Positions 445-41,967 of a stretch of 64,000 nucleotides of DNA are shown piece by piece. Position numbers and translations under genes: made by a program. Origin of the DNA: Somniosus microcephalus (lineage: Eukaryota); NCBI GenBank assembly GCA_052327205.1, contig CM126204.1, positions 212,970,001 through 213,034,000 of the forward strand, in the 5' to 3' direction. The stretch's first letter is position 1. Every line of letters begins with the position of its first letter. The notes beneath the pieces were generated by a model that searched no databases, was not told the DNA's origin, and saw only the letters and a program-made list of their open reading frames with translations.

Positions 445-1071
445 GAGTATCAGGCAGATTTTGTCTCCAGGGTCGCTGCGAGTGTGTAGCGAATGGAGGA
501 GTCCATAGCGACCAAGGTGTCCCATGCTTCTCGTAGATGCCTCCGCTGAGGAAGCGCTGAGTGAGGGTGGCGAGAGGGGCTTCCCAGGAGAACGCATTGG
601 AGAAGTGTGTGAGGCTCCAACCTTCCACAGCTGTGCCTAAGACTTGAAGAAGTAGCCCCAAACCTGCAACAACAAGGTCCTTCAACATACAAGTGCTGTC
701 CCTTTAAATCGCAGCTTCTCCGATTGACCTGCAGCTGACAGCAAGCAAGCCGGCAAGCTTCACGCCAGGTCTCAGCAGCGGGGTTCCCCGCAGGCGGGTT
801 TGATGTGGGGAAAGCCCCAAAGTTGCAACGGCCCCGGAATAACTACCTCAACAAGCTGATAATTGGTAATTAGTGTGCCGATGACCAGTCCCGCCAGCGG
901 CGGCCGGGACTGAAGCGGGTCGCGGGGAAACGGCAGTCCGAAAGTCGGACGGGGCAGGGAATCAGGCGCGGGGGGGTCCCGACCCGCTTTTTCGCCCGAC
1001 CCGCTTTTTCGCCGATTTTCGGCCCCCGGCCACATGAAAAGCCGCCCGACGGCGGCCAGAAAATTGACCCC
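442..1071 (+). mobile_element. Truncated, internally deleted non-autonomous Harbinger (copy A; right part only)
   Basis: 442-514 matches 2203-2275 and 514-1071 matches 2677-3215 of copy B. Ends in GAAAATTGACCCC, followed by TGA-GTGTCT satellite. The left TIR is missing. Confidence 0.88.
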
Positions 1072-1338
1072 TGAGTGTCTAAACAAAGTAATAACAAGAC
1101 ACACTGAGCGTGTAGACACAGCAATCACCAGACACACTGAGCATCTGGACATAGCAATCACCGGACACACTGAGCATCTGGACATAGCAATCACCAGACA
1201 CACTGAGCATCTAGACACAGCAATCACTAGACACAGTGAGCGTCTAGACACAACAATCACCACAAACACTGAGCGTCAAGAAATAGCAATTACAAGACAC
1301 ACTGAGCGTCTGGACACAGCAACCACCAGAAACACTGA
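1072..1338 (+). repeat. 33-bp satellite array, segment 2 (~8 units)
   Basis: Same monomer. Begins and ends with the TGA trinucleotide used as the Harbinger target. Confidence 0.97.
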
Positions 1339-1593
1339 GGCCCCGATTTTCGGCTTGTGTGGGAAATGGTCGGGTTTCCCCGAATGTGGGGTTTCTGACA
1401 CACATAAAAATGTGTCAGCCAGCTCCATGCAATTTTCCCTCAAGTGGCCAATTAATTCCCAGCATGTGGGAAGCCTTGCTAATTGTCCAATTCGAGTCAG
1501 AAATCCCCACAGTATGATGTCATCATTCGTGGTGCTTTCAAGGTCCATCGCAAGCACTGCAGCCTCTGAAGGCTTCCAAACAAAGCATACAGG

Positions 1594-2500
1594 ATGACAG
1601 AGGAGCCTGCAGCAGCTGTGGCCAGTGCCAGACCCCGAGCTGCCTTCAAATTCGACGAGGCTTTACTGCAGGCATTATTGGATGGGATTAGTGCCCACAG
1701 GGAGGTCCTCTTCCCTAGGTCAGGGAGGAAGAGGCCTCCCACTGAGGCCAATGCTGCATGGATGCAGGTGTCAGCAGATGCCAACTCGCTGGGAATCACC
1801 AGAAGAACCTTGGCATTACATCTCTAACTCCTTCCTTTACTCCCCCACCGTACCATCCAGAGCCCCCGTCCTCACTGTGGAGGAGGAAGAGGCTGTGCTG
1901 CCAGACTCCTCAGAGGAAGCTCCAACCTCTGAGGGTGCAGCGTCAGCAGAAGTAAGCGCACCCAGCACCAGCGCAGACACTCACACCTCGGGGGGACCTT
2001 CGAGACATAGAGTAGTGTTGTCACCTGGTGTTTCACAGCTCACAAGTGAGCTTCAGCAGATTCTGGAGACAGGGACAACAGTAGAGAGTCCTCGTCAGAG
2101 GGTGCAGGACTCTGCCAGTGCAGCTCAGCTGCGCTGCATGTCGACCCTCTGCCTCTGGGTCCATCCGCAAGAGAAGAGGTGATGGATCTCCATGCACAGA
2201 TGCAGGAGTCTCTGGCAGGTTTTGTCTCCAGGGTCATTGCGAGTGTGGAGCGTATGGAGGAGTCCATAGCGACCATGAGCAGAGCCTTTGTGGAGTCATT
2301 GGCGCATGAACGCATCACCATGGAAAGGTTGGCAACCTCCATGGAGGAGATAACTCGCCAGGGGACGGAAAACATGGTGAGTGCTCATAAGAGAATGACA
2401 TCTCTTGAGCGTTGGCCATCTGTTGAACAGAGAAACCAGATCTTCATGGAAGTCATTCTGAGTAGGACTGCCAGTGCCGAAACGGGTCCCCATGGCCCCC
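1594..2500 (+). pseudogene. Disrupted Harbinger Myb/SANT-like gene remnant
   Basis: MTEEPAAAVASARPRAAFKFDEALLQALLDGISAHREVLFPRSGRKRP...AWMQVS resembles the N-terminal half of the Myb/SANT domain at 59876-60112 (RAQRFSEHDLRVLVGAVEKRRHILFP..GKKP...AW). It breaks off before the QCRKK helix. An acidic/Ser-rich segment and a coiled-coil-like segment follow (2179 onward) in other frames. Confidence 0.75.
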
Positions 2501-2520
2501 TAAAGCACAGCAAGGTGCTC

Positions 2521-2688
2521 TCAAGCCACTTCCAAGCGCTGGCCCCTTCTGGCCTGTGCAGCTTCAGGTGAGTGAGCAGCAGCCTGGTGCTCCTGGTGCT
2601 CATCCTGCTGTTCCTGGTTCTGCTGCTGCCGCCTCTGCTGCTGGAGATCCTGTAATGGCAAGAAGGGAAGGAAAAAAAGGCGTCCCAT
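2521..2688 (-). pseudogene. Probable N-terminal remnant of the Harbinger transposase gene
   Basis: Short MG...QQQRRQQQ...RRGQR ORF convergent on the Myb remnant, downstream of a TTTAAA box. It lies where the transposase lies in the full-length element. No catalytic core remains, so the call rests on position. Confidence 0.45.
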
Positions 2689-3215
2689 GCTTCTCGTAGA
2701 TGCCTCCGCTGAGGAAGCGCTGAGTGAGGGTGGCGAGAGGGGCTTCCCAGGAGATCGCATTGGAGAAGTGTGTGAGGCTCCAACCTTCCACAGCTGTGCC
2801 TAAGCCTTGAAGATGTAGCCCCAAACCTGCAACAGCAAGGTCCTTCAACATACAAGTGCTGTCCCTTTAAATCGCAGCTTCTCCGATTGACCTGCAGCTG
2901 ACAGCAAGCAAGCCGGCAAGCTTCACGCCAGGTCTCAGCAGCGGGGTTCCCCGCAGGCGGGTTTGATGTGGGGAAAGCCCCAAAGTTGCAACGGCCCCGG
3001 AATAACTACCTCAACAAGCTGATAATTGGTAATTAGTGTGCCGATGACCAGTCCCGCCAGCGGCGGCCGGGACTGAAGCGGGTCGCGGGGAAACGGCAGT
3101 CCGGAAGTCGAACGGGGCGGGGAATCAGGCGGGGGAGTCCCGACCCACTTTTACGGCGATTTATGGCCCCCGACCGCCTGAAAAGCCGCCCGGTGGCGGC
3201 CAGAATATTGACCCC

Positions 3216-3914
3216 TGAGCGTCTAGACTACAGCAATCACCAGACAGATTGAGCATCTGGACACAGCAATCACCAGACACACTGAGCGTCTAGACACAGC
3301 AATCACTAGACACACTGAGCATCTACACACAACAATCACCAGACACACTGACCGTCTGGACACAGGGATCACCACAAACACTGAACATCAAGAAACAACA
3401 ATCACCAGACACACTGAGCGTCTGGACACGACAATCACCAGACACACTAAGTGTCTAGACACAGCAATCACCTGACACACTGAGCGTCCAGACACAGCAA
3501 TCACCAGACACACTGAGCGTCTAGCCACAGCAATCACCAGACACACTGAGCATCTAGCCACAGCAATCACCAGACACACTGAGCGTCTAGCCACAGCAAT
3601 CACCAGACACAATGAGCATCTAGACACAGCAATCAATAGACACACTGAGCGTCTAGAAAACAGCAATCACCAGACACACTGAGCATCTGGACACAGCAAT
3701 CACCAGACACACTTAACATCTAGACACAGCAATCACCTGACACACTGCGTGTCTAGACACAGCAATCACAAGACACACTGAGCGTCTAGACACAGCAATG
3801 ACAGGACACAATGAGCGTCAAGACACAGCAATCACCAGACAAACTGAGCATCTAGACCACAGCAATCACCAGACACACTGAGCGTCTGGACACAGAAATC
3901 ACCAGAAACACCAA
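3216..3914 (+). repeat. 33-bp satellite array, segment 3 (~21 units)
   Basis: Same monomer; spacer between the two inverted Harbinger copies. Confidence 0.97.
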
Positions 3915-5796
3915 GGCCCCGATTTTCGGGCAGCTGTCGGGCGGCTTTTCATGCGGCCGTGGTCCGAAAATCGCGGAAAAAGCGGGTCGGGACCCCCCCC
4001 GCCTGATTCCCCGCCCCGTCCAACTTTCGGACCGCCGTTTCCACGCGCCCCGCTTCAGTCCCGCCCGCCGCTGGCGGGACTGCTCGTCGGAGCACTAATC
4101 ACCAATGATCACCTTGTTAAGGACGATTTTCCCGTGCCGTTGCGACTTTGGGGCTTTCCCCACCTGAAACCCGCCTGCGGGGAACCCCGCCGATGAGAGC
4201 TGGCGTGAAAACAGCTGGCTTGCTTGCTTGCAGCAGCAGGGCTGAGGGCTGAAGATATTTAAAGAGGCAGCATTTGTAGGCTGCAGGGCCTTGTTGATCA
4301 AGGCTTGGGGGAACTATTTGAAGCCTTAGGAGCAGCTGCAGAAAGTTGGAGCCTCACACACTTCTTCAGTGTGAGCTCCTGGGAAGCCCCTCTCACCACC
4401 CTAACTCAGGACCTCCTCAACCGAGGCATCTGCTAGAAGCATGGGAGGCCTTTGGCACCTTCCCTTCCTGGCATTAGAGGATCTCCAACAGCAGAGGTGG
4501 CAGCAGCAGAACCAGGAACAGCATGATGATTACCAGGAGCACCAGGCTGCTGCTCACTCACCTGAAGCTGCACAAGCCAGAAGGGGCCAGCGCTTGGAAG
4601 TGGCTTGAGAGCACCTTGCTGCGCTTTAGGGGGCCAGTGGGACCCGTTTCTGCACTGGCAGTCCGACTCAGAAGGACTTCCATGAAGATCTGGTTTCTCT
4701 GTTCAACAGATGGCCAACGCTCCTCAAGAGATGTCATTCTCTTATGAGCACTCACCATGTTTTCCGTACCCTGGCGAGTTATCTCCTCCATGGAGGTTGC
4801 CCACCTTTCCATGGTGCTGCGTTCATGCACCAATGACTCCACAAAGGTTCTGCTCATAGTCGCTATGGACTCCTCCATTCGCTCCACACTTGCAGCGACC
4901 CTGGAGACAAAACCTGCCAGAGACTCCTGCATCTGTGCATGGAGATCCATCACCTCTTCTCTTGCGGATGGACCCAGAGGCAGAGGGTCGAGATGCAGCG
5001 CAGCTGAGCTGAGCTGGCAGAGCCCTGCGCCCTCCGACGAGGACTCTCCACTGTTGTCCCTGTCTCCAGAATCTGCTGAAGCTCACTTGTCAGCTGTGAA
5101 ACACCAGGTGACAACACTACTCTATGTCCCAAAGGTCCCCCCGAGGTGTGAGTGTCTGCGCTGGTGCTGGGTGCGCTTACTTCTGCTGACGCTGCGCCCT
5201 CAGAGGTTGGAGCTTCCTCTGAGGAGTCTGGCTGCACAGCCTCGCCTCTTCTCCTCCACAGTGAGGACGGGGGCTCTGGATGGTACTGTGGGGGAATAAA
5301 GGAAGGAGTTACAGATGTAATGCCAAGGTTCCTCTGGTGACTCCCAGCGAGTTGGCATCTGCTGACACCTGCATCCATGCAGCATTGGTCTCAGTGGGAG
5401 GCCTTTTCCTCCCTGACCTGGGGAAGAGGACCTCCCTGTGGGCCCTAACCCCATCCAATAATGCCTGCAGTGAAGCCTCGTCGAATTTGAAGGCAGCTCG
5501 GGGTCTGGCACTGGCCACAGCTGCTGCAGCTCCTCTGCCATCCTGTATGGTTCATTTGGAAGCCTTCAGAGAATGCACTGCTTGCCATGGACCTTGAAAG
5601 CACCACGAATGATGACATCATACTGTGGGGATTTCTGACTCGAATTGGACAATTAGCAAGGCTTCCCACATGCTGGGAATTAATTGGCCAATTGAGGGAA
5701 AATTGTGTGGGGCTGGCTGACACTTTTTTATGTGTGTCAGAAACCCCACATTCGGGGAAATCCGACCATTTCCCACACAAGCCGAAAATCGGGGCC
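3915..5796 (-). mobile_element. Non-autonomous PIF/Harbinger DNA transposon (copy C, ~1.88 kb)
   Basis: Perfect 15-bp TIRs GGCCCCGATTTTCGG (3915-3929) / CCGAAAATCGGGGCC (5782-5796). 3-bp TSD CAA (3912-3914, 5797-5799). Same internal structure as copy B, inverted. Confidence 0.95.
4630..5541 (-). pseudogene. Disrupted Harbinger Myb/SANT-like gene remnant (copy C)
   Basis: ARPRAAFKFDEASLQALLDGVRAHREVLFPRSGRKRPP..AAWMQVS plus downstream acidic and coiled-coil-like segments. Has frameshifts and the same truncation point as copy B. Confidence 0.75.
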
Positions 5797-8700
5797 CAAG
5801 TGTCTAGACACAGCAATCACAAGGCACACTGAGCGTGTAGACAAAGCAATCACCAGACACACTCAGCATCTGTATACAGCAGTCACCAGACACACTGAGC
5901 GTCTAGACACAGCAATCTCCAGAAACACTGAGCACCAAGAAACAGCAATCACCAGACACACTGAGCGTCTGGACACGACAATCATCAGGCACACTGAGCG
6001 CCTAGGCACAGCGATCACCAGACACACTGAGCGTCTGGGCACAGCAATCACCAGACACACTGAGCGTCTGGACACAGCAATCACCAGACACAGAGCGTCT
6101 GGACAGAGCAATCACTAGACACACTGAGTGTCTAGACACAGCAACCTCCAGAAACACTGAGTGTCTAAACACAGCAATCATCAGACACACTGAGCATCTG
6201 GAGACAGCAATCACCAGACACACTGAGCATCTAGGCACAGCAATCACGAGACACACTGAGCGTCAAGAAACAGCAATCCCCAGACACACTGAGCATCTGG
6301 ACATGACAATCACCAGACACACTGAGTGTCCAGCCACAGCAATCACCAGACACACTGAGCGAGTAGCCACAACAATCACCAGACACAATGAGCATCTAGA
6401 CACATCAATCACCAGACACACTGAACAGCTAGTAAAAGAGCAATCACCAGACGCACTGAACATCTGGACACAGCAATCACTAGACACACTGAGCGTCTAG
6501 ATACAACAATCACCAGACACACTGAGCGTCTGGACACAGCAATCACTACAAACACTGAGTGTCAAGAAACAGCAATCACCAGACTAACTGAGTGTCTAGA
6601 CGCATCAATCACCAGACGCACTGAGCATCTAGACACAGCAATCACCTGACACACTTAGCATCTAGACACGGCAATCACCTGACACACTGAGTGTCTAGAC
6701 ACAGCAATCACAAGACACACTGAGCATCTAGACACAGCAATGACAGGACACAATGAGCACCTGGACACAGCAATCACTAAACACACTGAGCATTGAGAGC
6801 ACAGCAATCACCAGACACACTGAGCATCTGGACACAGCAATCACCAGAAACACTGAGCGTGTAGACAAAGGAATCACCAGACACGCTCAGCATCTGGACT
6901 CAGCAATCACCAGGCACACTGAGCACCTAGACACAACAATCACCAGACACACTGAGCGTCTGGACACAGCAATCACCAAAAACACTGAGTGTCAAGAAAC
7001 AGCAATCACAAGACACACTGAGAATCTAGACACAGCAATCACAACAGGCACTGAGCGTCTAGACACAGCAATCACCAGACACACTGAGCGTCGAGACACA
7101 GCAATCATCAGACACACTGAGCGTCTGGAGACAGCAATCACCAGACACACTGAGCATCTAGGCACAGCAATCACGAGACACACTGAGCGTCAAGAAACAG
7201 CAATCCCCAGACACACTGAGCGTCTGGACATGACAATCACCAGACACACTGAGTGTCCAGCCACAGCAATCACCAGACACACTGAGCGAGTAGCCACAAC
7301 AATCACCAGACACAATGAGCATCTAGACACGTCAATCACCAGACACACTGAACAGCTAGTAAAAGAGCAATCACCAGACGCACTGAACATCTGGACACAG
7401 CAATCACTAGACACACTGAGCGTCTAGATACAACAATCACCAGACACACTGAGCGTCTGGACACAGCAATCACTACAAACACTGAGTGTCAAGAAATAGC
7501 AATCACCAGACTAACTGAGTGTCTAGACGCATCAATCACCAGACACACTGAGCATGTAGACACAGCAATCACCTGACACACTAAGCGCCCAGACACAGCA
7601 ATCCGCAGACACACTGAGTGTCTAGCCACAGCAATCACCAGACACAATGAGCATCTAGACACAGCAATCACCAGACACACTTAGCATCTAGACACGGCAA
7701 TCACCTGACACACTGAGCATCTAGACACAGCAATGACAGGACACAATGAGCGCCTGGACACAGCAATCACTAGACACACTGAGCATCTAGACACAGCAAT
7801 GACAGGACACAATGAGCGCCTGGACACAGCAATCACTAGACACACTGAGCATTGAGAGCACAGCAATCACCAGACACACTGAGAATCTAGACACAGCAAT
7901 CACAACAGGCACTGAGCGTCTAGACACAGCAATCACCAGACACACTGAGCGTATAGACACAGCAATCACAATACACACTGAGCATCTAGACACAGCAATC
8001 ACCAGACACACCGAGCATCTGGACAGATCAATCACAGGACACTATGAGTGTCTAGACACAGCAATGACAGGACACACTGAGCATCTATACACAGCAATCA
8101 CCAGACACACTGAGCATGAAACATAGCAATCACCAGGCATACTGAGTGTCTGAACAGAGCAATCACCAGACATACTGAGCATCTAGACATAGCAATCACC
8201 AGACATATTAAGCGTCTGGACACAGCAATCACAAGACACACTGAGCATCTAGACACAGCAATCCCCAGACACCTGAGCGTCTAGACACAGCAATCACAAG
8301 GCACACTGAGCATCTGGACACAGCAATCACTAGACACACTGAGCGTCTAGACACAGCAATCACCTGACACACCAAGCACCCAGACACAGCAATCAGCAGA
8401 CACACTGAGCGTCTAGCCACAGCAATCACCAGACACAATGAGCATCTGGACACAGCAATCACCAGACACACTTAGCATCTAGAAACAGCAGCACAAGACA
8501 CACTGAGCGTCTAGACACAGCAATGACAGGACACAATGAGCGTCAAGACACAGCAATCACCAGACACACTGAGCATCTAGACCACAGCAATCACCAGACA
8601 CACTGAGCGTCTGGACACAGCAATCATCAGAAACACTGAGTGTCTAGACACAGCAATCACAAGGCGCACTGAGCGTGTAGACAAAGCAATCACCAGACAC

Positions 8701-11700
8701 ACTCAGCATCTGGACACAGCAATCACCAGGCACACTGAGCGCCTAGACACAACAATCACCAGACACACTGAGCGTCTGGATACAGCAATCACCACAAACA
8801 CTGAGCGTCAAGAAACAACAATCACCAGACACACTGAGCGTCTGGACACAGCAATCACCAGACACACTGAGCGTCTAGACACAGCAATCAGCAGACACAG
8901 CGAGTGTCTAGACACAGAAATCACCAGACACGCTGAGCGTCTGGACACAGCAATCACCAGACACACTGAGCATCTAGACACAGCAATCACCAGACACCTT
9001 GAGGTGCTAGACAGCAATCACAAGACACACTGTGCATCTAAACACAGCAATCTCCAGACACACTGAGCATCTGAACACAGCAATCACAAGACACACCAAA
9101 CATCTAGACACAGCAATCACCAGACACACTGAGCAGCTGGACACAGCAATTACAAGACACGCTGAAAGTCTAGACACAGCAATCACAAGACACACTGAGC
9201 GTCTGGACACAGCAATCAAAAGAGACAGGGCGTCTGGACACAGCAATCACAAAACGCACTGAGCATCTGGACACAGCAATCACCAAAGACACTGAGCGTC
9301 TAAACACAGCAATCACCAGACACACTGAGCGTATAGACACAGCAATCACAATACACACTGAGCATCTGGACAGATCAATCACAGGACAATGTGAGTGTCT
9401 AGGCACTGCAATCACCTGACACACTGAGCGTCTGGACACAGCAATCACCAGACACACTGAGCATCTAGACAGAGAAATCAGCAGACACAGCCCGCGTCTA
9501 GACACAGTAATCACCAGACACACTGAGCGTTTGCACACAGCAATCACCTGACTCATCGAACATCTAGACACAGCAATCACAAGACACACTGAGCATCTAG
9601 AGACAGCAATCATCTGACACACTGAGCGCCTGGACACAGCAATCACCAGACAAACTGAGTGTCTGGACACAGCAATCACCAGACACACTGAGCTTCTACA
9701 CACAGCAATCACAAGACACACTGAGAGTCTAGACACAGCAATGACAGGACAAACTGAGCATCTAGACACAGCAATCACCAGGCACACCGAGTGTCTAGAC
9801 CACAGCAATCACCAGACACACTGAGCATCTAGACACGGCAATCACCAGACACACTGAGCGACTAGACATAGCAATCACCAGACATACTGAGTGTCTGGAC
9901 AGAGCAATCACCAGACTTACTGAGCGTCTAGACATAGCAATCGCCAGACATACTGAGTGTCTGGACACAGCAATCACAAGACACACTGAGCATCTAGACA
10001 CAGCAATCACCAGACACCTGAGCGTCTAGACACAGCAATCACCAGACACACTGAGCGACTGGACACAACAATCAGCAGCCACACTGAGCTTCTACATACA
10101 GCAATCACCAGACACCTTGAGGTGCTAGACAGCAATCACTAGACACACTGTGTGTCCAGACACAGCAATCTCCAGACACACTGAGCGTGTGGACACAGCA
10201 ATCACTAGACACAGTGAGCGTCTAGACACAACAATCACCACAAACACTGAGCGTCATGAAACAGCAATCACAAGACACACTGAGCATCTGGACACATCAA
10301 TCACAAGACACACTGAGCATCTGGACAGATCGATCACAAGACACACTGAGCGTCTAGACACTGCAATCACCTGACACACTGAGCGTTTGGACACAGCAAT
10401 CACTAGATTCACTGAGCGTCTAGGCACAGCAATCACAAGACACACTAAGCATCTAGACACAGCAATCACCAGACACACTGAGCGGCTGGACACAGCAATT
10501 ACAAGATACACTGAGCCTTTAGACACATCAAACACAAGACACAATGAGAGTCTAGACATAGCAATCACCAGACACACTGAGCGTCTAGACACAGCAATCA
10601 CACGACACACTGAGTGTCTGGACACAGCATTCAACAGACACACTGAGCGTCTAGACGCAGCAATCACCAGACACACCGAGCATCTGGACAGATCAATCAC
10701 CAGACACATTGAGTGTCTAGACACAGCAATCACCAGACAAAACTGAGTGTCTACACACAGCAATCACCAGACACACTCAGCGTCTGGACACAGCAATCAC
10801 CACAAAAACTGAGGGTGAAGAAACAGCAATCACAAGACACACTGAGAATCTAGACACAGCAATCACCACAGACACTGAGCGTCTAGACACAGTAATCAGC
10901 AGATACACCGAGCATCTAGACACAGCAATCACCAGACACATTGAGCATCTAAACACAGCAATTACAAGACACACTGAGTGCCTAGACACAGCAATCACCA
11001 GACACACTGAGTGTCTGTACACAGCAATCACCACGCACACTGAGCGCCTAGACACAGCAATCACCAGACACACTGAGTGTCTGGACACAGCAATCACCAC
11101 AAACACTGAGCGTCAAGAAACAACAATCACAAGACACACTGAGCGTCTAGACACAGCAATCACAAGACACACTGAGCGTCTGGACACAGCAATCAAAAGA
11201 GACAGAGCGTCTGGACACAGCAATCACAAAACGCACTGAGCATCTGGACACAGCAATCACCAAAGACACTGAGCGTCTAAACACAGCAATCACTAGACAC
11301 AGTGAGCATCTAGACACAGCAATCACCAGACACACTGAGCGTATAGACACAGCAATCACAATACACACTGAGCATCTGGACAGATCAATCACAGGACAAT
11401 GTGAGTGTCTAGACACTGCAATCACCTGACACACTGAGCGTCTGGACACAGCAATCACCAGACACACTGAGCATCTAGACAGAGCAATCAGCAGACACAG
11501 CCAGCGTCTAGACACAACAATCACCAGACAAACTGAGTGTCTGGACACAGCAATGACAAGACAAACTGAGCTTCTACACACAGCAATCACAAGACACACT
11601 GAGAGTCTAGACACAGCAATGACAAGACAAACTGAGCATCTAGCCACAGCAATCACCAGACACACTGAGCGACTAGACATAGCAATCACCAGACACACTG

Positions 11701-14700
11701 AGCATCTAGACACGGCAATCACCAGACACACTGAGCGACTAGACATAGCAATCACCAGACATACTGAGTGTCTGGACAGAGCAATCACCAGACTTACTGA
11801 GCGTCTAGACATAGCAATCGCCAGACACACTGAGCGACTGGACACAACAATCAGCAGCCACACTGAGCTTCCAGACACAGCAATCACCAGACACCTTGAG
11901 GTGCTAGACAGCAATCACAAGACACAATGTGTGTCTCGACACAGCAATCTCCAGACACACTGAGCGTGTGGACACAGCAATCACTAGACACAGTGAGCGT
12001 CTAGACACAACAATCACCACAAACACTGAGCGTCATGAAACAGCAATCACAAGACACACTGAGCATCTGGACACATCAATCACAAGACACACTGAGCATC
12101 TGGACAGATCGATCACAAGACACACTGAGCGTCTAGACACTGCAATCACCTGACACACTGAGCGTTTGGACACAGCAATCACTAGATTCACTGAGCGTCT
12201 AGGCACAGCAATCACAAGACACACTAAGCATCTAGACACAGCAATCACCAGACACACTGAGTGGCTGGACACAGCAATTACAAGACATGCTGAAAGTCTA
12301 GACACAGCAATCACAAGATACACTGAGCGTCTGGACACAGCAATCATAAGACACAGAGCGCCCGGACACAGCAATCATAAGACACACTGAGCCTTTAGAC
12401 ACATCAAACACAAGACACAATGAGAGTCTAGACATAGCAATCACCAGCCACACTGAGCGTCTAGACACAGCAATCACACGACACACTGAGTGTCTGGACA
12501 CAGCAATCACCAGACACACTGAGTGTCTACACACAGCAACCACAAGACACACTGAGCATCGAGACACAGCAATCACCAGACACACTGAGTGTCTACACAC
12601 AGCAACCACAAGACACACTGAGCGCCTAGACACAGCAATGACAGGACACACTGCGCATCTAGACACAGCAATCGCCAGACACACTGAGCGTCTAGACCAC
12701 AGCAATCACCAGACACACTGAGCGACAAAACATAGCAATCACCATACATACTGAGTGTCTGCACAGAGCAATCACCAGACATACTGAGCGTCTAGACAAA
12801 GCAATCACCAGACATACTGAGTGTCTGGACACAGCAATCACATGACACACTGAGCATCTAAACACAGCAATCACCAGACATACTGAGCGTCTACACGACA
12901 GCAATCACCAGACACACTGAGCGTCTGGAGACAGCAATCACCACAAACACTGAGGGTCAAGAAACAGCAATCACAAGACGCACTGAGAATCTAGACACAG
13001 CAATCACCACAGACACTGAGCGTCTAGACACAGCAATCACTAGATACACCGAGCGTCTACACACAGCAATCACAAGGCACACTGAATGTCTAGACATAGC
13101 AATCACCAGACACACTGAGTGTCTGGACACAGCAATCACAAGAGACACTGAGCATCTGGACACAACAATCAGCAGCCACACTGAGCTTCTAGACACAGCA
13201 ATCACTAGACACACTGAGGTGCTTGACAGCAATCACAAGACACACTGTGCGTCTAGACACAGCAATCTCCAGACACACTGAGCGTCTGGACACAACAATC
13301 ACTAGACTCAATGAGCATCTAGGCACAGCAATCACAAGACACACTTAGCATCTAGACACAGCAATCACCAGACACACCGAGCATCTGGGCAGATCAATCA
13401 CAGGACACTATGAGTGTCTAGACACGGCAATCACCTGACATGCTGAGCGTCTGGACACAGCAATCACCAGACACACTGAGCATCTAGACACAGCAATCAG
13501 GAGACACACCGAACATCTAGACACAGCAATCACCAGACACACTGAGCATCTTTACACAGCAATCACAAGACACACTGAGCATCTAGACACAGCAATGACA
13601 GGACACACTGCGCATCTAGACACAGCAATCACCAGACACACTGAGCGTCTAGACCACAGCAATCACCAGACACACTGAGCATCTAGATACTGCAATCACC
13701 AGACACACTGAGCGACTAGACACAGCAATCACCGGACACACTGAGCGTTTGCACACAGCAATCACCTGACACATCGAACATCTAGACACAGCAATCACAA
13801 GATACACTCAGCATCTAAACGCAGCAATCACCAGACACACTGAGCATCTTGACACAGCAAGCACAAGACACACTGAGCATCTAGACACAGCAATGACAGG
13901 ACACACTGAGCATCTAGACACAGCAATCACCAGACACACTGAGCGACTAGACATAGCAATCACCAGACATACTGAGTGTCTGGACAGAGCAATCACCAGA
14001 CATACTGAGCGTCTAGACATAGCAATCACCAGACACACTGAGAATCTAAACACAGCAATCACCAGACATACTGAGCATCTAGACCACAGCAATCACAAGA
14101 CGCACTGAGAATCTAGACACAGCAATCACCACAGACACTGAGCGTCTAGACACAGCAATCACCAGATAAACCGAGCGTCTACACACAGCAATCACCAGGC
14201 ACATTGAGCATCTAAACACAGCAATTACAAGACACACTAAGTGCCTAGACACAGCAATCACCAGACATACTGAGTGTCTGGACACAGCAATCGCATGACA
14301 CACTGAGCATCTAAACACAGCAATCACCAGACACACTGAGAGTCTAGAAAACAGCAATCACCAGACACACTGAGCTTCTGGACAGATCAATCACAGGACA
14401 CTATGAGTGTCTAGACACTGCAATCACCTGACACGCTGAGCGTCTGGACACAGCAATCACCAGACACACTGAGCATCTAGACACAGCAATCAGCAGACAC
14501 ACCGAGCGTCTGCACACAGCAATCACCTGACACATCGAACATCTCGACACAGCAATCACAAGACACACTGAGCATCTAGACACAGCAATCATCTGACACA
14601 CTGAGCGTCTAGGCACAGCAATGACAGGACACACTGAGCATCTAGCCACAGCAATCAGCAGACACAATGAGCATCTAGACACAGCAATCACCAGACAAAC

Positions 14701-17700
14701 TTAGCATCTAGACACGGCAGCACAAGACACACTGAGCGTCTAGACACAGCAATGACAGGACACAATGAGCGTCAAGACACAGCAATCACCAGACACACTG
14801 AGCGTCTGGACACAGCAATCACCAGACACACTGAGCATCTTGACCACAGCAATCACCAGACACACTGAGCGCCCGCACACAGCAATCATCAGAAACACTG
14901 AGTGTCTAGGCACAGCAATCACAAGGCACACTGAGCGTGTAGACAAAGCAATCACCAGATACACCCTGCATCTGGACACAGCAATCACCAGGCACACTGA
15001 GCACCTAGACACAACAATCACCAGACACACCGAGCGTCCAGACACAGCAATCACCACAAACACTGAGCGTTCAAGAAACAGCAATCACAAGACACACTGA
15101 GAATCTAGACACAGCAATCACCACAGACACTGAGCGTCTAGACACAGCAATCACCAGACACACCGAGCGTCCAGACACAGCAATCACCAGACACACTGAG
15201 CATATAGACACAGCAATCACAATACACACTGAGCATCTAGACACAGCAATCACCAGACACACCGAGCATCTGGACAGATCAATCACAGGACACTATGAGT
15301 GTCTAGACACTGCAATCACCTGACACGCTGAGCGTCTGGACACAGCAATCACCAGACACACTGAGCATCTAGACACAGCAATCAGCAGACACACCGAGCG
15401 TCTGCACACAGCAATCACCTGACACATCGAACATCTCGACACAGCAATCACAAGACACACTGAGCATCTAGACACAGCAATCACCAGACAAACTTAGCAT
15501 CTAGACACGGCAGCACAAGACACACTGAGCGTCTAGACACAGCAATGACAGGACACAATGAGCGTCAAGACACAGCAATCACCAGACACACTGAGCATCT
15601 AGACCACAGCAATCACCAGACACACTGAGCCTCTGGACACAGCAATCATCAGAAACACAGTGTCTAGGCACAGCAATCACAAGGCACACTGAGCGTGTAG
15701 ACAAAGCAATCACCAGATACACCCTGCATCTGGACACAGCCTTCACCAGGCACACTGAGCGCCGAGACACAACAATCACCAGACACACTGAGCGTCTGGA
15801 CACAGCAATCACCACAAACACTGAGCATTCAAGAAACAGCAATCACAAGACACACTGAGAATCTAGACACAGCAATCACCACATACACTGAGCGTCTAGA
15901 CACAGCAATCACCAGACACACCGAGCGTCCAGACACAGCAATCACCAGACACAATGAGCATATAGACACAGCAATCACAATACACACTGAGCATCTAGAC
16001 ACAGCAATCACCAGACACACCGAGCATCTGGACAGATCAATCACAGGACACTATGAGTGTCTAGACACTGCAATCACCTGACACGCTGAGCGTCTGGACA
16101 CAGCAATCACCAGACACACTGAGCATCTAGACACAGCAATCAGCAGACACACCGAGCGTCTGCACACAGCAATCACCTGACACATCGAACATCTCGACAC
16201 AGCAATCACAAGACACACTGAGCATCTAGACTCAGCAATCATCTGACACACTGAGCGTCTAGGCACAGCAATGACAGGACACACTGAGCATCTAGACACA
16301 GCAATCACCAGACACAGTGAGCATCTAGACCACAGCAATCACCAGACACACTGAACATCTAGACACTGCAATCACCAGACACACTGAGCGTCTAGACATA
16401 GCAATCACCAGACATATTGAGTATCTGGACAGAGCAATCACCAGACATACTGAGCGCCTAGACATAGCAATCACCAGACATACTGAGTGTCTGGACACAG
16501 CAATCACCAGACACACTGAGCATCTAGACACAGCAATCAGCAGACACACCGAGCGACTGCACACAGCAATCACCTGACACATCGAACATCTCGACACAGC
16601 AATCACAAGACACACTGAGCATCTAGACACAGCAATCATCTGACACACTGAGCGTCTAGGCACAGCAATGACAGGGCACACTGAGCATCTAGACACAGCA
16701 ATCACAAGACACAGTGAGCGTCTAGACCACAGCAATCACCAGACACACTGAGCATCTAGACATTGCAATCACCAGACACACTGAGCGTCTCGACATAGCA
16801 ATCACCAGACATATTGAGTATCTGGACAGAGCAATCACCAGACATACTGAGCGTCTAGACATAGCAATCACCAGACATACTGAGTGTCTGGACACAGCAA
16901 TCACAAGACACACTGAGCATATAGACACAGCAATCACCAGACACCTGAGCGTCTATACACAGCAATATCAAGACACACCGAATGTCTAGACACAGCAATC
17001 GCCAGACACACCGAGTGTCTAGACACAACAATCACCAGACACACTGTGCGTCTGGACACAACAATCTCCAGACACACTGAGCTTCTGGACACAGCAATCA
17101 CAAGACACACCAAACATCTAGACACAGCAATCACCAGACACACTGAGCAGCTGGACACAGCAATTACAAGACACGCTGAAAGTCTAGACACAGCAATCAC
17201 AAGACAAACTGAGCGTCTGGACACAGCAATCAAAAGAGACAGAGCGTCTGGACACAGCAATCATAAAACACACTGAACATCTGGACATAGCAATCACCAA
17301 AGACACTGAGCATCTAAACACAGCAATCACTAGACACAGTGAGCATCTAGACACAGCAATCACCAGACACACTGAGCGTATAGACACAGCAATCACAATA
17401 CACACTGAGCATCTAGACACAGCAATCACCAGACACACTGAGCATCTGGACAGATCAATCACAGGACACTATGAGTGTCTAGACACTGCAATCACCTGAC
17501 ACACTGAGCGTCTGGACACAGCAATCACCAGACACACTGAGCATCTAGACAGAGCAATCACCAGACACACTGAGCGTATAGACACAGCAATCACAATACA
17601 CACTGAGCATCTAGACACAGCAATCACCAGACACACTGAGCATCTGGACAGATCAATCACAGGACACTATGAGTGTCTCGACACTGCAATCACCTGACAC

Positions 17701-20700
17701 GCTGAGCGTTTGCACACAGCAATCACCTGACTCATCGAACATCTAGACACAGCAATCACAAGACACACTGAGCATCTAGAGACAGCAATCATCTGACACA
17801 CTGAACGCCTGGACACAGCAATCACCAGACACACTGAGCATCTAGACACAGCAATCACTAGATACACCGAGCGTCTACACACAGCAATCACAAGGCACAC
17901 TGAATGTCTAGACACAGCAATCACCAGACACACTGAATGTCTAGACACAGCAATCACCAGACACACTGAGTGTCTGGACACAGCAATCACAAGAGACACT
18001 GAGCATCTGGACACAACAATCAGCAGCCACACTGAGCTTCCAGACACAGCAATCACCAGACACCTTGAGGTGCTAGACAGCAATCACAAGACACAATGTG
18101 TGTCTCGACACAGCAATCTCCAGACACACTGAGCGTGTGGACACAGCAATCACTAGACACAGTGAGCGTCTAGACACAACAATCACCACAAACACTGAGC
18201 GTCATGAAACAGCAATCACAAGACACACTGAGCATCTGGACACATCAATCACAAGACACACTGAGCATCTGGACAGATCGATCACAAGACACACTGAGCG
18301 TCTAGACACTGCAATCACCTGACACACTGAGCGTTTGGACACAGCAATCACTAGATTCACTGAGCGTCTAGGCACAGCAATCACAAGACACACTAAGCAT
18401 CTAGACACAGCAATCACCAGACACACTGAGTGGCTGGACACAGCAATTACAAGACATGCTGAAAGTCTAGACACAGCAATCACAAGATACACTGAGCGTC
18501 TGGACACAGCAATCATAAGACACAGAGCGCCCGGACACAGCAATCATAAGACACACTGAGCCTTTAGACACATCAAACACAAGACACAATGAGAGTCTAG
18601 ACATAGCAATCACCAGCCACACTGAGCGTCTAGACACAGCAATCACACGACACACTGAGTGTCTGGACACAGCAATCACCAGACACACTGAGTGTCTACA
18701 CACAGCAACCACAAGACACACTGAGCATCGAGACACAGCAATCACCAGACACACTGAGTGTCTACACACAGCAACCACAAGACACACTGAGCGCCTAGAC
18801 ACAGCAATGACAGGACACACTGCGCATCTAGACACAGCAATCGCCAGACACACTGAGCGTCTAGACCACAGCAATCACCAGACACACTGAGCAACAAAAC
18901 ATAGCAATCACCATACATACTGAGTGTCTGCACAGAGCAATCACCAGACATACTGAGCGTCTAGACAAAGCAATCACCAGACATACTGAGTGTCTGGACA
19001 CAGCAATCACATGACACACTGAGCATCTAAACACAGCAATCACCAGACATACTGAGCGTCTACACGACAGCAATCACCAGACACACTGAGCGTCTGGAGA
19101 CAGCAATCACCACAAACACTGAGGGTCAAGAAACAGCAATCACAAGACGCACTGAGAATCTAGACACAGCAATCACCACAGACACTGAGCGTCTAGACAC
19201 AGCAATCACTAGATACACCGAGCGTCTACACACAGCAATCACAAGGCACACTGAATGTCTAGACATAGCAATCACCAGACACACTGAGTGTCTGGACACA
19301 GCAATCACAAGAGACACTGAGCATCTGGACACAACAATCAGCAGCCACACTGAGCTTCTAGACACAGCAATCACTAGACACACTGAGGTGCTTGACAGCA
19401 ATCACAAGACACACTGTGCGTCTAGACACAGCAATCTCCAGACACACTGAGCGTCTGGACACAACAATCACTAGACTCAATGAGCATCTAGGCACAGCAA
19501 TCACAAGACACACTTAGCATCTAGACACAGCAATCACCAGACACACCGAGCATCTGGGCAGATCAATCACAGGACACTATGAGTGTCTAGACACGGCAAT
19601 CACCTGACATGCTGAGCGTCTGGACACAGCAATCACCAGACACACTGAGCATCTAGACACAGCAATCAGGAGACACACCGAACATCTAGACACAGCAATC
19701 ACCAGACACACTGAGCATCTTTACACAGCAATCACAAGACACACTGAGCATCTAGACACAGCAATGACAGGACACACTGCGCATCTAGACACAGCAATCA
19801 CCAGACACACTGAGCGTCTAGACCACAGCAATCACCAGACACACTGAGCATCTAGATACTGCAATCACCAGACACACTGAGCGACTAGACACAGCAATCA
19901 CCGGACACACTGAGCGTTTGCACACAGCAATCACCTGACACATCGAACATCTAGACACAGCAATCACAAGATACACTCAGCATCTAAACGCAGCAATCAC
20001 CAGACACACTGAGCATCTTGACACAGCAAGCACAAGACACACTGAGCATCTAGACACAGCAATGACAGGACACACTGAGCATCTAGACACAGCAATCACC
20101 AGACACACTGAGCGACTAGACATAGCAATCACCAGACATACTGAGTGTCTGGACAGAGCAATCACCAGACATACTGAGCGTCTAGACATAGCAATCACCA
20201 GACACACTGAGAATCTAAACACAGCAATCACCAGACATACTGAGCATCTAGACCACAGCAATCACCAGACACACTGAGCGTCTGGACACAGCAATCACCA
20301 CAAACACTGAGGGTCAAGAAACAGCAATCACAAGACGCACTGAGAATCTAGACACAGCAATCACCACAGACACTGAGCGTCTAGACACAGCAATCACCAG
20401 ATAAACCGAGCGTCTACACACAGCAATCACCAGGCACATTGAGCATCTAAACACAGCAATTACAAGACACACTAAGTGCCTAGACACAGCAATCACCAGA
20501 CATACTGAGTGTCTGGACACAGCAATCGCATGACACACTGAGCATCTAAACACAGCAATCACCAGACACACTGAGAGTCTAGAAAACAGCAATCACCAGA
20601 CACACTGAGCTTCTGGACAGATCAATCACAGGACACTATGAGTGTCTAGACACTGCAATCACCTGACACGCTGAGCGTCTGGACACAGCAATCACCAGAC

Positions 20701-23700
20701 ACACTGAGCATCTAGACACAGCAATCAGCAGACACACCGAGCGTCTGCACACAGCAATCACCTGACACATCGAACATCTCGACACAGCAATCACAAGACA
20801 CACTGAGCATCTAGACACAGCAATCATCTGACACACTGAGCGTCTAGGCACAGCAATGACAGGACACACTGAGCATCTAGCCACAGCAATCAGCAGACAC
20901 AATGAGCATCTAGACACAGCAATCACCAGACAAACTTAGCATCTAGACACGGCAGCACAAGACACACTGAGCGTCTAGACACAGCAATGACAGGACACAA
21001 TGAGCGTCAAGACACAGCAATCACCAGACACACTGAGCGTCTGGACACAGCAATCACCAGACACACTGAGCATCTTGACCACAGCAATCACCAGACACAC
21101 TGAGCGCCCGCACACAGCAATCATCAGAAACACTGAGTGTCTAGGCACAGCAATCACAAGGCACACTGAGCGTGTAGACAAAGCAATCACCAGATACACC
21201 CTGCATCTGGACACAGCAATCACCAGGCACACTGAGCACCTAGACACAACAATCACCAGACACACCGAGCGTCCAGACACAGCAATCACCACAAACACTG
21301 AGCGTTCAAGAAACAGCAATCACAAGACACACTGAGAATCTAGACACAGCAATCACCACAGACACTGAGCGTCTAGACACAGCAATCACCAGACACACCG
21401 AGCGTCCAGACACAGCAATCACCAGACACACTGAGCATATAGACACAGCAATCACAATACACACTGAGCATCTAGACACAGCAATCACCAGACACACCGA
21501 GCATCTGGACAGATCAATCACAGGACACTATGAGTGTCCAGACACTGCAATCACCTGACACGCTGAGCGTCTGGACACAGCAATCACCAGACACACTGAG
21601 CATCTAGACACAGCAATCAGCAGACACACCGAGCGTCTGCACACAGCAATCACCTGACACATCGAACATCTCGACACAGCAATCACAAGACACACTGAGC
21701 ATCTAGACACAGCAATCACCAGACAAACTTAGCATCTAGACACGGCAGCACAAGACACACTGAGCGTCTAGACACAGCAATGACAGGACACAATGAGCGT
21801 CAAGACACAGCAATCACCAGACACACTGAGCATCTAGACCACAGCAATCACCAGACACACTGAGCCTCTGGACACAGCAATCATCAGAAACACAGTGTCT
21901 AGGCACAGCAATCACAAGGCACACTGAGCGTGTAGACAAAGCAATCACCAGATACACCCTGCATCTGGACACAGCCTTCACCAGGCACACTGAGCGCCGA
22001 GACACAACAATCACCAGACACACTGAGCGTCTGGACACAGCAATCACCACAAACACTGAGCATTCAAGAAACAGCAATCACAAGACACACTGAGAATCTA
22101 GACACAGCAATCACCACATACACTGAGCGTCTAGACACAGCAATCACCAGACACACCGAGCGTCCAGACACAGCAATCACCAGACACAATGAGCATATAG
22201 ACACAGCAATCACAATACACACTGAGCATCTAGACACAGCAATCACCAGACACACCGAGCATCTGGACAGATCAATCACAGGACACTATGAGTGTCTAGA
22301 CACTGCAATCACCTGACACGCTGAGCGTCTGGACACAGCAATCACCAGACACACTGAGCATCTAGACACAGCAATCAGCAGACACACCGAGCGTCTGCAC
22401 ACAGCAATCACCTGACACATCGAACATCTCGACACAGCAATCACAAGACACACTGAGCATCTAGACTCAGCAATCATCTGACACACTGAGCGTCTAGGCA
22501 CAGCAATGACAGGACACACTGAGCATCTAGACACAGCAATCACCAGACACAGTGAGCGTCTAGACCACAGCAATCACCAGACACACTGAACATCTAGACA
22601 CTGCAATCACCAGACACACTGAGCGTCTAGACATAGCAATCACCAGACATATTGAGTATCTGGACAGAGCAATCACCAGACATACTGAGCGCCTAGACAT
22701 AGCAATCACCAGACATACTGAGTGTCTGGACACAGCAATCACCAGACACACTGAGCATCTAGACACAGCAATCAGCAGACACACCGAGCGACTGCACACA
22801 GCAATCACCTGACACATCGAACATCTCGACACAGCAATCACAAGACACACTGAGCATCTAGACACAGCAATCATCTGACACACTGAGCGTCTAGGCACAG
22901 CAATGACAGGACACACTGAGCATCTAGACACAGCAATCACAAGACACAGTGAGCGTCTAGACCACAGCAATCACCAGACACACTGAGCATCTAGACATTG
23001 CAATCACCAGACATACTGAGTGTCTGGACACAGCAATCACAAGACACACTGAGCATATAGACACAGCAATCACCAGACACCTGAGCGTCTATACACAGCA
23101 ATATCAAGACACACCGAATGTCTAGACACAGCAATCGCCAGACACACCGAGTGTCTAGACACAACAATCACCAGACACACTGTGCGTCTGGACACAACAA
23201 TCTCCAGACACACTGAGCTTCTGGACACAGCAATCACAAGACACACCAAACATCTAGACACAGCAATCACCAGACACACTGAGCAGCTGGACACAGCAAT
23301 TACAAGACACGCTGAAAGTCTAGACACAGCAATCACAAGACAAACTGAGCGTCTGGACACAGCAATCAAAAGAGACAGAGCGTCTGGACACAGCAATCAC
23401 AAAACACACTGAACATCTGGACATAGCAATCACCAAAGACACTGAGCATCTAAACACAGCAATCACTAGACACAGTGAGCATCTAGACAGAGCAATCACC
23501 AAACACACTGAGCGTATAGACACAGCAATCACAATACACACTGAGCATCTAGACACAGCAATCACCAGACACACTGAGCATCTGGACAGATCAATCACAG
23601 GACACTATGAGTGTCTAGACACTGCAATCACCTGACACGCTGAGCGTTTGCACACAGCAATCACCTGACTCATCGAACATCTAGACACAGCAATCGCAAG

Positions 23701-26700
23701 ACACACTGAGCATCTAGAGACAGCAATCATCTGACACACTGAACGCCTGGACACAGCAATCACCAGACACACTGAGCATCTAGACACGGCAATCACCAGA
23801 TACACTGAGCGACTAGACATAGCAATCACCAGACATACTGAGTGTCTGGACAGAGCAATCACCAGACATACTGAGCGTCTAGACATAGCAATCGTCAGAC
23901 ATACTGAGTGTCTGGACACAGCAAACACAAGACACACTGAGCATCTAGACACAGCAATCACCAGACACACTGAGCGTCTACACACAGCAATCACAAGACA
24001 CACTGAGCGTCTAGACACAGCAATGACAGGACAAACTGAGCATCTAGACACACCAATCACCAGGCACACTGAGTGTCTAGACCACAGCAATCACAAGACA
24101 CACTGAGCATCTAGACACGGCAATCACCAGATACACTGAGCGACTAGACATAGCAATCACCAGACATACTGAGTGTCTGGACAGAGCAATCACCAGACAT
24201 ACTGAGCGTCTAGACATAGCAATCACCAGACATACTGAGTGTCTGGACACAGCAATCACATGACACACTGAGAATCTAAGCACAGCAATCACCAGACATA
24301 CTGAGCGTCTAGACCACAGCAATCACCAGACACACTGAGCGTCTGGACACAGCAATCACCACAAACACTGAGGGTCAAGAAACAGCAATCACAAGATGCA
24401 CTGAGAATCTAGACACAGCAATCACCACAGACACTGAGCGTCTAGACACAGCAATCACCAGATAAACTGAGCGTCTACACACAGCAATCACCAGGCACAT
24501 TGAGCATCTAAACACAGCAATTACAAGACACACTGAGTGCCTAGACACAGCAATCACCAGTCATACTGAGTGTCTGGTCACAGCAATCACATGACACACT
24601 GAGCATCTAAACACAGCAATCACCAGACACACTGAAAGTCTAGAAAACAGCAATCACCAGACATACTGAGCATCTGGACACAGCAATCACTAGACACACT
24701 GAACATGTAGACACAGCAATCACCTGGCACACCAAGCGCCCAGACACAGCAATCAGCAGACACACTGAGCGTCTAGACACAGCAATCACCAGACACAATG
24801 AGCATCTAGACACAGCAATCACCAGACAAACTTAGCATCTAGACACGGCAGCACAAGACACACTGAGCGTCTAGACACAGCAATGACAGGACACAATGAG
24901 CGTCAAGACACAGCAATCACCAGACACACTGAGCATCTAGACCACAGCAATCACCAGACACACTGAGCGTCTGGACACAGCAATCATCAGAAACACTGAG
25001 TGTCTAGGCACAGCAATCACAAGGCACATGAGCGTGTAGACAAAGCAATCACCAGATACACCCTGCATCTGGACACAGCAATCACCAGGCACACTGAGCG
25101 CCTAGACACAACAATCACCAGACACACTGAGCGTCTGGACACAGCAATCACCACAAACACTGAGCGTTCAAGAAACAGCAATCACAAGACACACTAAGAA
25201 TCTAGACACAGCAATCACCACATACACTGAGCGTCTAGACACAGCAATCACCAGACACACCGAGCATCCAGACACAGCAATCACCAGACACACTGAGCAT
25301 ATAGACACAGCAATCACAATACACACTGAGCATCTAGACACAGCAATCACCAGACACACCGAGCATCTGGACAGATCAATCACAGGACACTATGAGTGTC
25401 TAGACACTGCAATCACCTGACACGCTGAGCGTCTGGACACAGCAATCACCAGACACACTGAGCATCTAGACACAGCAATCAGCAGACACACCGAGCGTCT
25501 GCACACAGCAATCACCTGACACATCGAACATCTCGACACAGCCATCACAAGACACACTGAGCATCTAGACGCAGCAATCATCTGACACACTGAACGTCTA
25601 GGCACAGCAATGACAGGACACACTGAGCATCTAGACACAGCAATCACCAGATACAGTGAGTGTCTAGACCACAGCAATCACCAGACACACTGAGCATCTA
25701 GACACTGCAATCACCAGACACACTGAGCGTCTAGACATAGCAATCACCAGACATATTGAGTATCTGGACAGAGCAATCACCAGACATACTGAGCGTCTAG
25801 ACATAGCAATCACCAGACATACTGAGCGTCTGGACACAGCAATCACAAGACACACTGAGCATATAGACACAGCAATCGCCAGGCACACCAAGTGTCTAGA
25901 CACAACAATCACCAGACATACTGAGCTTCTAGACACAGCAATCACCAGACACCTTGAGGTGCTAGACAACAATCACAAGACACACTGTGCGTCTAAACAC
26001 AGCAATCTCCAGACACACTGAGCTTCTGGACACAGCAATCACAAGACACACCAAACATCTAGACACAGCAATCACCAGACACACTGAGCAGCTGGACAAA
26101 GCAATTACAAGACACGCTGAAAGTCTAGACACAGCAATCACAAGACAAACTGAGCGTCTGGACACAGCAATCAAAAGAGACAGAGCGTCTGGACACAGCA
26201 ATCACAAAACACACTGAACATCTGGACATAGCAATCACCAAAGACACTGAGCGTCTAAACACAGCAATCACTAGACACAGTGAGCATCTAGACACAGCAA
26301 TCACCAGACACACTGAGCGTATAGACACAGCAATCACAATACACACTGAGCATCTAGACACAGCAATCACCAGACACACTGAGCATCTGGACAGATCAAT
26401 CACAGGACACTATGAGTGTCTAGACACTGCAATCACCTGACACACTGAGCGTCTGGACACAGCAATCACCAGACACACTGAGCATCTAGACAGAGCAATC
26501 AGCAGACACAGCCAGCGTCTAGACACAGCAATCACCAGACACACTGAGCGTTTGCACACAGCAATCACCTGACTCATCGAACATCTAGACACAGCAATCA
26601 CAAGACACACTGAGCATCTAGAGACAGCAATCATCTGACACACTGAGCGTCTAGACACAGCCATCACCAGACACACTGAGCGTCTAGACAACAGCAATGA

Positions 26701-38700: not shown

Positions 38701-39585
38701 GCATCTGGACATAGCAATCACCAGACACACTGAGCGTCTAAACTCAGCAATCACTATACACAGTGAGCGTCTAGACACAGCAATCACCAGACACACTGAG
38801 CGTATAGACACTGCAATCACCTGAGACGCTGAGCATCTGGACACAGCAATCACCAGACACACCGAGCATCTGGAAAGATCAATCAGAGGACACTATGAGT
38901 GCCTAGACACTGCAATCACCTGAGACGCTGAGCGTCTAGACACAGCAATCACCAGACACACTGAGCCTTTGCACACAGCAATCACCTGACACATCGAACA
39001 TCTAGACACAGCAATCACAAGACACACTCAGCATCTAGACACAGCAATCACCAGACACACTGAGCGTCTTCACACAGCAATCACAAGATACACTGAGCGT
39101 CTAGACCACAGCAATCACTAGACACACTGAGCATCTAGACACTGCAATCACCAGACACACAGAGCGACTGGACATAGCAATCACCAGACATACTGAGTGT
39201 CTGCACAGAGCAATCACGAGACATACTGAGCGTCTAGACAAAGCAATCACCAGACACCTGAGTGTCTAGAAACAGCAATCACAAGACAGACTGAATGTCT
39301 AGACACGACAATCAGCAGCCACGCTGAGCTTCTAGACACAGCAATCACCAGACACCATGAGGTGCTAGACAGCAATCACAAGACACACTATGTGTCTAGA
39401 CACAGCAATCACAAGACACACTGAGCATCTGGACACATCAATCACAAGACACACAGTGTCTAGACACAGCAATCACAAGACACACTGAGCGCCTAGACAC
39501 TGCAATCACCGGACACACTGAGCGTTTGGACACAGCAATCACTAGACTCACTGAGCATCTAGGCACAGCAATCACAAGACACACC
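5797..39585 (+). repeat. 33-bp satellite array, main segment (~33.8 kb, about 1000 units) with higher-order duplications
   Basis: Uninterrupted A/C-rich monomers with recurrent 31-34 bp variants. Identical ORF-track peptides recur at offsets of 927, 758, 6169-6235, 3695 and 1764 bp. Confidence 0.98.
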
Positions 39586-39819
39586 TGTTGTGTATGTAAC
39601 CTGTTCCACCTTAAGAGAGCTTAAGCCTGTTCCACCTTAAGAGATGTACTACTTTCTCAGGCTGCTGTAGACGTAATACCGGGGGTGAACACACCGGTAT
39701 ATAAGCACTGTGCAGTAATCTTGTATTCAGTATAGTCCCTACCTCCAACCAGTAAAGACCTGTTTTTATTGTTACTCATTAGTCTGTTTTAATTAACTAA
39801 ATAATTCACAGACTTAACA
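39586..39819 (+). repeat. 5' LTR (234 bp)
   Basis: TGTTGTG...CTTAACA. Differs from the 3' LTR at one position by eye (A39741 vs G42123). Contains TATATAA and AGTAAA. Confidence 0.97.
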
Positions 39820-39820
39820 C

Positions 39821-41954: not shown

Positions 41955-41967
41955 AAGAAGGGAGGAG
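41955..41967 (+). promoter_or_regulatory. Polypurine tract
   Basis: AAGAAGGGAGGAG directly before the 3' LTR. Confidence 0.9.

Follow-up and report, generated by a model that had tools for sequence, protein, structure and literature searches.

Among the closest described systems is the zebrafish element Harbinger3_DR, for which a review quotes the target consensus AAACACCWGGTCTTT, i.e. AAACAC-CWG-GTCTTT (PMC3016246), and which appears as NuwaI-2_DRer in the NuwaI group (target site duplication, TSD, CWG) in the classification given by Han et al. 2015 (PMC4482050). NuwaII is defined in the same account by C-TNA-G, and barley Harbingers are reported to have a short TAA preference (PMC5738225). 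Harbingers are listed in two papers on shark genomes (PMC12498223, PMC8455134), so their presence in sharks is not put forward as a novelty; two papers report their absence from sharks or elephant shark. The open literature searched, with Repbase reports and subscription papers lying outside it, yielded nothing on the target sites of shark Harbingers. Here, a satellite array broken by Harbinger copies is analysed in a 64,000-nt stretch of Somniosus microcephalus (GCA_052327205.1, contig CM126204.1, positions 212,970,001 to 213,034,000 of the forward strand), hereafter the window; coordinates are positions in it, and negative values or values above 64,000 lie beyond it on the same contig. Insertion sites genome-wide very probably conform to a loosely palindromic motif of 15 bp, (A/G)RASAC-WWW-GTSTY(T/C), which the transposase likely recognises, and the same high confidence is attached jointly to the view that the array copies A, B and C arose by deletion from a Nuwa-like Harbinger DNA transposon. 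An earlier note on this DNA had given a Harbinger3_DR target starting with AAACAC before the 3-bp TSD, and this was correct.

Results

Harbinger insertions in the satellite array

A 33-bp satellite makes up the bulk of the window, and its whole array runs from ~-26,380 to 90,990, a single locus of ~117 kb: an exact satellite 27-mer has 196 matches in the 6.4-Gb genome and 196/196 fall within 264 kb around the window. Six Harbinger insertions (A, B, C, F, G and H) break the array, and those parts that lie in the window are as follows (TIR, terminal inverted repeat).

~445..1071, + strand: copy A, the right-hand 0.6 kb of a non-autonomous Harbinger family with a GGGGTC-type end, lacking its left end and some of the flank and carrying another deletion inside (aligned to element positions 1339-1877 of B plus a 65-bp piece; start approximate)
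1072..1080, + strand: remaining TSD TGA and right half-site GTGTCT of A
1330..1338, + strand: left half-site AAACAC (1330-1335) and TSD TGA (1336-1338) of B
1339..3215, + strand: copy B, 1877-bp non-autonomous Harbinger of the subfamily with unlike ends (GGCCCCGATTTTC / GGGGTCAATWTTC)
1594..1812, + strand: Myb/SANT-like first-exon remnant in B (PF13873, E 3e-4, 21.0 bits, slightly below the 21.7 cut-off)
3216..3224, + strand: TSD TGA (3216-3218) and right half-site GCGTCT of B
3906..3914, + strand: left half-site AAACAC (3906-3911) and TSD CAA (3912-3914) of C
3915..5796, - strand: copy C, 1882-bp non-autonomous Harbinger with GGCCCCGATTTTCGG at either end, inverted relative to B
4441..4608, + strand: N-terminal remnant of the transposase gene in C, starting as does the 416-aa DDE_Tnp_4 frame of its relative L150
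5797..5805, + strand: TSD CAA (5797-5799) and right half-site GTGTCT of C
5806..63973, + strand: main run of the 33-bp satellite in the window, split by other insertions
56151..56159, + strand: left half-site ACACAC and TSD TGA of F
56160..60473, + strand: element F, 4314-bp full-length Harbinger with TIR GGCCTAGAAATTCA (PF13359, E 1.7e-32; PF13873, E 1.5e-11)
60474..60482, + strand: CGA, the right TSD copy of F with one mismatch to TGA, followed by its right half-site GTGTCT
61427..61441, + strand: uninterrupted monomer AAACAC-TGA-GTGTCT, best paralog of the site of A
63967..64000, + strand: start of element G, with AGACAC, TSD ATT and TIR GGGGGAGAAATTC

Element G (4579 bp, 63976-68554) is 73% identical to F, lies two bases off the usual register and extends beyond the window, while H, a 716-bp element with F-type ends that the earlier note did not know of, is found at ~83284-83999, 19 kb past the window, in an AAACAC-TGA-GTGTCT site. 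TSDs are exact in B, C, G and H, all with short TIRs, and differ by one mismatch in F.

The earlier note held that B and C are both preceded by a rare AAACAC variant of the monomer, and the left flanks at 1330-1335 and 3906-3911 bear this out. In-register AAACAC occurs in 46/1466 monomers of the window and 89/2281 of the whole array; ACACAC monomers are 16 times commoner. CCAGAAACAC is present 12 times in the window against 446 times for CCAGACACAC. The probability of two out of two at AAACAC is 0.0015, post hoc. The satellite at 12000-22800 has a higher-order duplication with offsets of ~6.2 kb, so that monomer counts are non-independent. At its right end, ~90990 (L074), the array runs into another repeat through an AAACAC-TGA-GTGTTT monomer.

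Copy A has indeed lost its left end, and the suggestion that it too used AAACAC can be upheld as likely only. Compared without gaps, its 132-bp right flank comes closest to the block near 61436 (122/132), which is preceded by AAACAC-TGA, while the next-best block (119/132) carries AAGCAC; the left flank does not single this block out, matching it at 90/100 against 91/100 for another. With H added, three of the four in-register left flanks that can be observed are AAACAC (p = 2e-4), that of F being ACACAC. A feature that the earlier note had missed is that the right half-site is also selected: GTGTCT stands to the right of 4/5 in-register insertions compared with 276/2209 array monomers (p = 0.001). 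This right-half count could be raised by conversion of GCGTCT to GTGTCT, a CpG-type change.

A, B and C inserted independently. Relative to B, C lies in the opposite orientation, has a different TSD and shows 90.6% identity; A shares 93% identity with B but 96% with two copies on other contigs. A and B belong to the subfamily with unlike ends and C to that with like ends, and the idea that B is a chimera, raised by the locus edges, was dropped once unlike ends were recognised as a subfamily trait. Uninterrupted paralogs of the C site carry AAACAC-TGA-GTGTCT, hence the AAACAC variant is older than the insertion of C. The TSD of C is CAA on either side where these paralogs have TGA; CGA is a common monomer variant (116/1466), and CpG decay is a possible route to CAA.

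Element ends across the genome

No further copies of the non-autonomous family were found in the satellite, either by a pattern search (which recovers B only, C being missed by one flank variant) or on a 264-kb map, and because of this the enrichment was assessed on ends genome-wide. Counts refer to exact end motifs, mutated ends being excluded, and the non-autonomous counts include the four matching ends of the window itself. The GGCCCC end GGCCCCGATTTTCGG occurs 2205 times, in 187 cases after A?ACAC-NNN, with A at the variable base in 111, G in 64, T in 8 and C in 4 (the 76 non-A cases split by hand); the 56 GGGGTC ends after A?ACAC divide into 27 A, 25 G, 3 T and 1 C (by hand). The pooled non-autonomous ratio of AAACAC to ACACAC is thus 138:5. 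F-type ends number 78,560, a very large family for a lineage once reported to be without Harbingers, and 6570 of them follow A?ACAC (3426 AAACAC, 369 ACACAC). For G-type ends, 1369 follow A?ACAC; the first 100 matches listed include 5 with C and 4 with T (by hand).

Hexamer abundance cannot explain this skew, because ACACAC is the commoner of the two in 552,552 background positions (457, of which 198 lie inside longer AC runs, against 240 for AAACAC). Ends of either family are enriched ~100-fold for AAACAC and ~2- to 6-fold for ACACAC. The proposal that the non-autonomous family occupies AAACAC above its background frequency was confirmed by the 111 AAACAC against 4 ACACAC ends genome-wide. 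The broader proposal of an extended target preference survives in altered form: AAACAC is strongly preferred over ACACAC, but not exclusively, since AGACAC is common (64/187) and the preference at -5 is for a purine.

A logo of (A/G)-R-A-S-A-C is common to 86 half-sites of the non-autonomous family (29 + 29 + 19 + 9, some being the two ends of one copy, with one locus lacking a second end dropped) and 29 of F. Among the 86, R is found at -5 in 76, A at -4 in 77, S at -3 in 65, A at -2 in 54 and C at -1 in 63; the TSD is 80-83% A/T in the half-sites of the two families. Of 39 fetched copies, 19 have an exact TSD, and in these the right side mirrors the left. A matrix trained solely on sites outside the array and scored on all 70,602 array positions places 82% of its weight on the register of A, B, C, F and H (5 insertions) and 17% on that of G (1), and ranks the sites of A, C and H among the top 28.

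Loci with AAACAC-ATA form a hot spot, 15/16 of those fetched lying at one site of another dispersed repeat (L151-L164, L166). Insertions there have either orientation (2/12 reversed), belong to two subfamilies with a mean identity of 93.7% and are mostly followed by GTGTTA, which points to repeated targeting of the site; a single insertion carried inside another element was ruled out by orientation and tree position. The host repeat resembles a retrotransposon pol by eye, a Pfam scan of 30 aa being blank. The hot spot inflates the AAACAC count, and its rough removal leaves 94:5.

Element anatomy

B and C retain only the Myb-like exon (PF13873, E 3e-4 in both, slightly below cut-off) and the transposase start. 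Their relative L150, on another contig, is 2681 bp long with ends 84-85% identical to theirs and has an open 416-aa DDE_Tnp_4 frame (L150:1120-2367, - strand; PF13359, E 5.9e-37), 59% identical to the F transposase over 286 aa. L150 has lost most of the Myb-like side and is in that respect the complement of B and C; one-gene variants have been described for Harbinger-Snek (PMC8437027). In F the transposase is encoded on the + strand (56631-57785, with an in-frame stop at 57585-57587) and the Myb-like (Myb/SANT) gene on the - strand. The best database relatives of this transposase are shark and ray 'putative nuclease HARBI1' proteins, up to 70% identical, and no solved structure matching it at E 0.01 was found. 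The features of the PIF/Harbinger (PHIS) superfamily are all present, i.e. DDE_Tnp_4 in F and L150, a Myb/SANT gene in F, and short TIRs with a 3-bp TSD.

Other insertions in the array

Insertions at 43640-43972 and 53332-55725, which we take to be short interspersed element (SINE)-like and long interspersed element (LINE)-like respectively, occupy other monomer registers. Three long terminal repeat (LTR) element insertions, at 39586-42201, ~-16478 (duplicated at -7090) and ~68657, lie in a common monomer register with the 5-bp duplication ACACY. Two of the three have common LTR ends, the window copy (39586-42201) has a gag-protease-like frame (weak Pfam matches), and a 4.9-kb LTR element is present twice via array duplication. 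A target preference of the LTR elements for one satellite register is possible (n=3).

Discussion

The element anatomy, TSDs, flank motif, counts and phasing described above are direct observations, and on them a model is proposed in which the transposase would read half-sites: a symmetric complex may contact six bases to either side of a cut staggered by 3 bp, with an A/T-rich centre favoured, perhaps for bending. By coincidence the satellite monomer holds a near match to the 15-bp motif; its usual ACACAC spelling presents the disfavoured C at -5, whereas the rare AAACAC fits, so the few insertions would gather on AAACAC monomers, above all where GTGTCT lies opposite. The F and G families have the same preference as the non-autonomous family, and AAACAC at B, C and H together with ACACAC at F is compatible with one common preference.

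Several observations weigh against this interpretation. The preference is loose, in that 95% of ends lie next to sequences other than AAACAC, and at 100 ends taken without conditioning -5 is A in 41, G in 35, C in 12 and T in 12 (by hand; the pattern excludes A at -9). Among the 39 fetched copies are 11 in which an end motif is present but the TSD is not exact, and 9 for which no second end was found. The array holds just two observed insertions and one inferred insertion of this non-autonomous family. The best-matching paralogous blocks of B and H have other hexamers, mostly ACACAC, and the AAACAC at B and H could be private or later changes; the monomer spelling of B does recur at 61418. A matrix with independent positions gives AAACAC monomers 26% of the weight and ACACAC monomers 34%, so that three of three at AAACAC is favoured, not predicted. 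Estimates from conditional counts put the AAACAC share at 55-78% for the non-autonomous family and 29-54% for F.

The alternative that fares best is that of the earlier note, in which each of the two families has a specificity of its own, the non-autonomous one needing AAACAC and the full-length one taking ACACAC; this is considered unlikely. The ratios of 138:5 and 3426:369 do differ (odds ratio 3.0, Fisher p = 0.009), and the two lineages share only 59% identity in their transposases. However, either family favours AAACAC, at 5.0% (111/2205) of non-autonomous ends and 4.4% (3426/78,560) of F-type ends, no logo position differs between the 86 and 29 half-sites (chi-square p 0.24-0.91), H combines F-type ends with an AAACAC site in this array, and rough removal of the hot-spot copies from each family brings the p value to 0.051. 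The F-type end motif also pools several subfamilies of unknown age. What stands of the claim is a ~3-fold difference in tolerance of ACACAC, a matter of degree in the same direction that may reflect age or pooled subfamilies, and the bulk of it falls. The ACACAC site of F is expected, because ACACAC monomers are so much commoner and the right half-site of F is optimal.

A second alternative, that chromatin or tethering directs the elements to the satellite itself, the choice of monomer being secondary, is less probable still. Six Harbinger insertions in ~117 kb would fit it, as would the three LTR elements in one register. Against it, 0 of 29 + 29 + 29 outside end loci come from this array, and 78,560 F-type ends in 6.4 Gb amount to ~1 per 82 kb, so the four here are not far above average. 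For the rarer family, three copies within 6 kb are more than its genome average, which dense good sites or local hopping could explain.

Chance or array history, whether through small numbers and a pattern spotted post hoc, an insertion duplicated with its flank (as the array has done with one 4.9-kb LTR element) or post-insertion mutation (the best paralogs of B and H lacking AAACAC), is the least credible account and is largely refuted by the identical bias at thousands of ends outside the array. Against it also stand the differences in subfamily, orientation, TSD or flanks that set A, B, C and H apart, and H as an independent AAACAC instance at a background of 3.9%.

The phasing of insertions in the satellite is explained by sequence alone. 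An extended Harbinger target like that of the zebrafish element becomes measurable in a cartilaginous fish, in three families and with the transposases of two lineages at 59% identity. The principle was already known, and the gain is a well-counted new example, not a new mechanism. A wider and tentative reading, to which slightly less than even confidence is given, is that vertebrate Nuwa-type Harbinger transposases have kept the half-site RRASAC since the split of sharks and bony fish while the central bases changed freely (CWG, TNA, WWW); conservation across jawed vertebrates, which the earlier note had raised, is plausible and rests on two lineages. If this is true, grouping by TSD hides a conserved mode of flank reading, and tens of thousands of shark insertions offer a natural map of target specificity in a family of transposases with no solved relative found.

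Comparison with known Harbinger systems

PIF/Harbinger proper (the TWA group, with mPing and Tourist) belongs to the same superfamily and likewise has a 3-bp A/T-rich TSD and non-autonomous derivatives, but TWA accounts for only 4/86 and 4/29 of the TSDs here. The shark and ray 'putative nuclease HARBI1' entries are gene-model names and have no target-site information. With NuwaII the elements here have in common two open reading frames and TIRs starting with GG, as all the sampled ends do, with C before the TSD in 63/86 and G after it in 13/19, and F matches NuwaII-4_XTro at ~52/92 block residues (~57%, by eye). In contrast to NuwaII, TNA makes up only 11/86 and 4/29 of the TSDs, and where one conserved flanking base on each side is described for NuwaII in the sections concerned (PMC4482050), the half-site here has six bases.

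Harbinger3_DR has in common with the shark elements a DDE_Tnp_4 transposase plus Myb/SANT gene, a 3-bp TSD and a palindromic 15-bp target, and F agrees with it at ~50/92 residues of the printed DDE blocks (~54%, by eye). The shark elements appear Nuwa-like on the basis of this by-eye block identity of ~54-57% to two Nuwa members. NuwaI TIRs usually start with GGG, as do the GGGGTC and GGGGGA ends here, while the GGCCCC and GGCCTA ends do not. Harbinger3_DR is described as highly specialised, whereas 5% of ends here follow AAACAC, and its TSD is CWG, which is found in 2/86 and 1/29 of the A/T-rich, variable TSDs here. The comparison of the flank logo with its target succeeds for the AAACAC and AAAGAC half-sites and fails for the CWG centre; common flanks with differing TSDs make a pattern that does not follow the division into Nuwa classes by TSD. 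On the pooled matrix the flanks of the quoted Harbinger3_DR consensus score 13.3 of a maximal 14.4 bits. The shark motif may be homologous to the zebrafish target.

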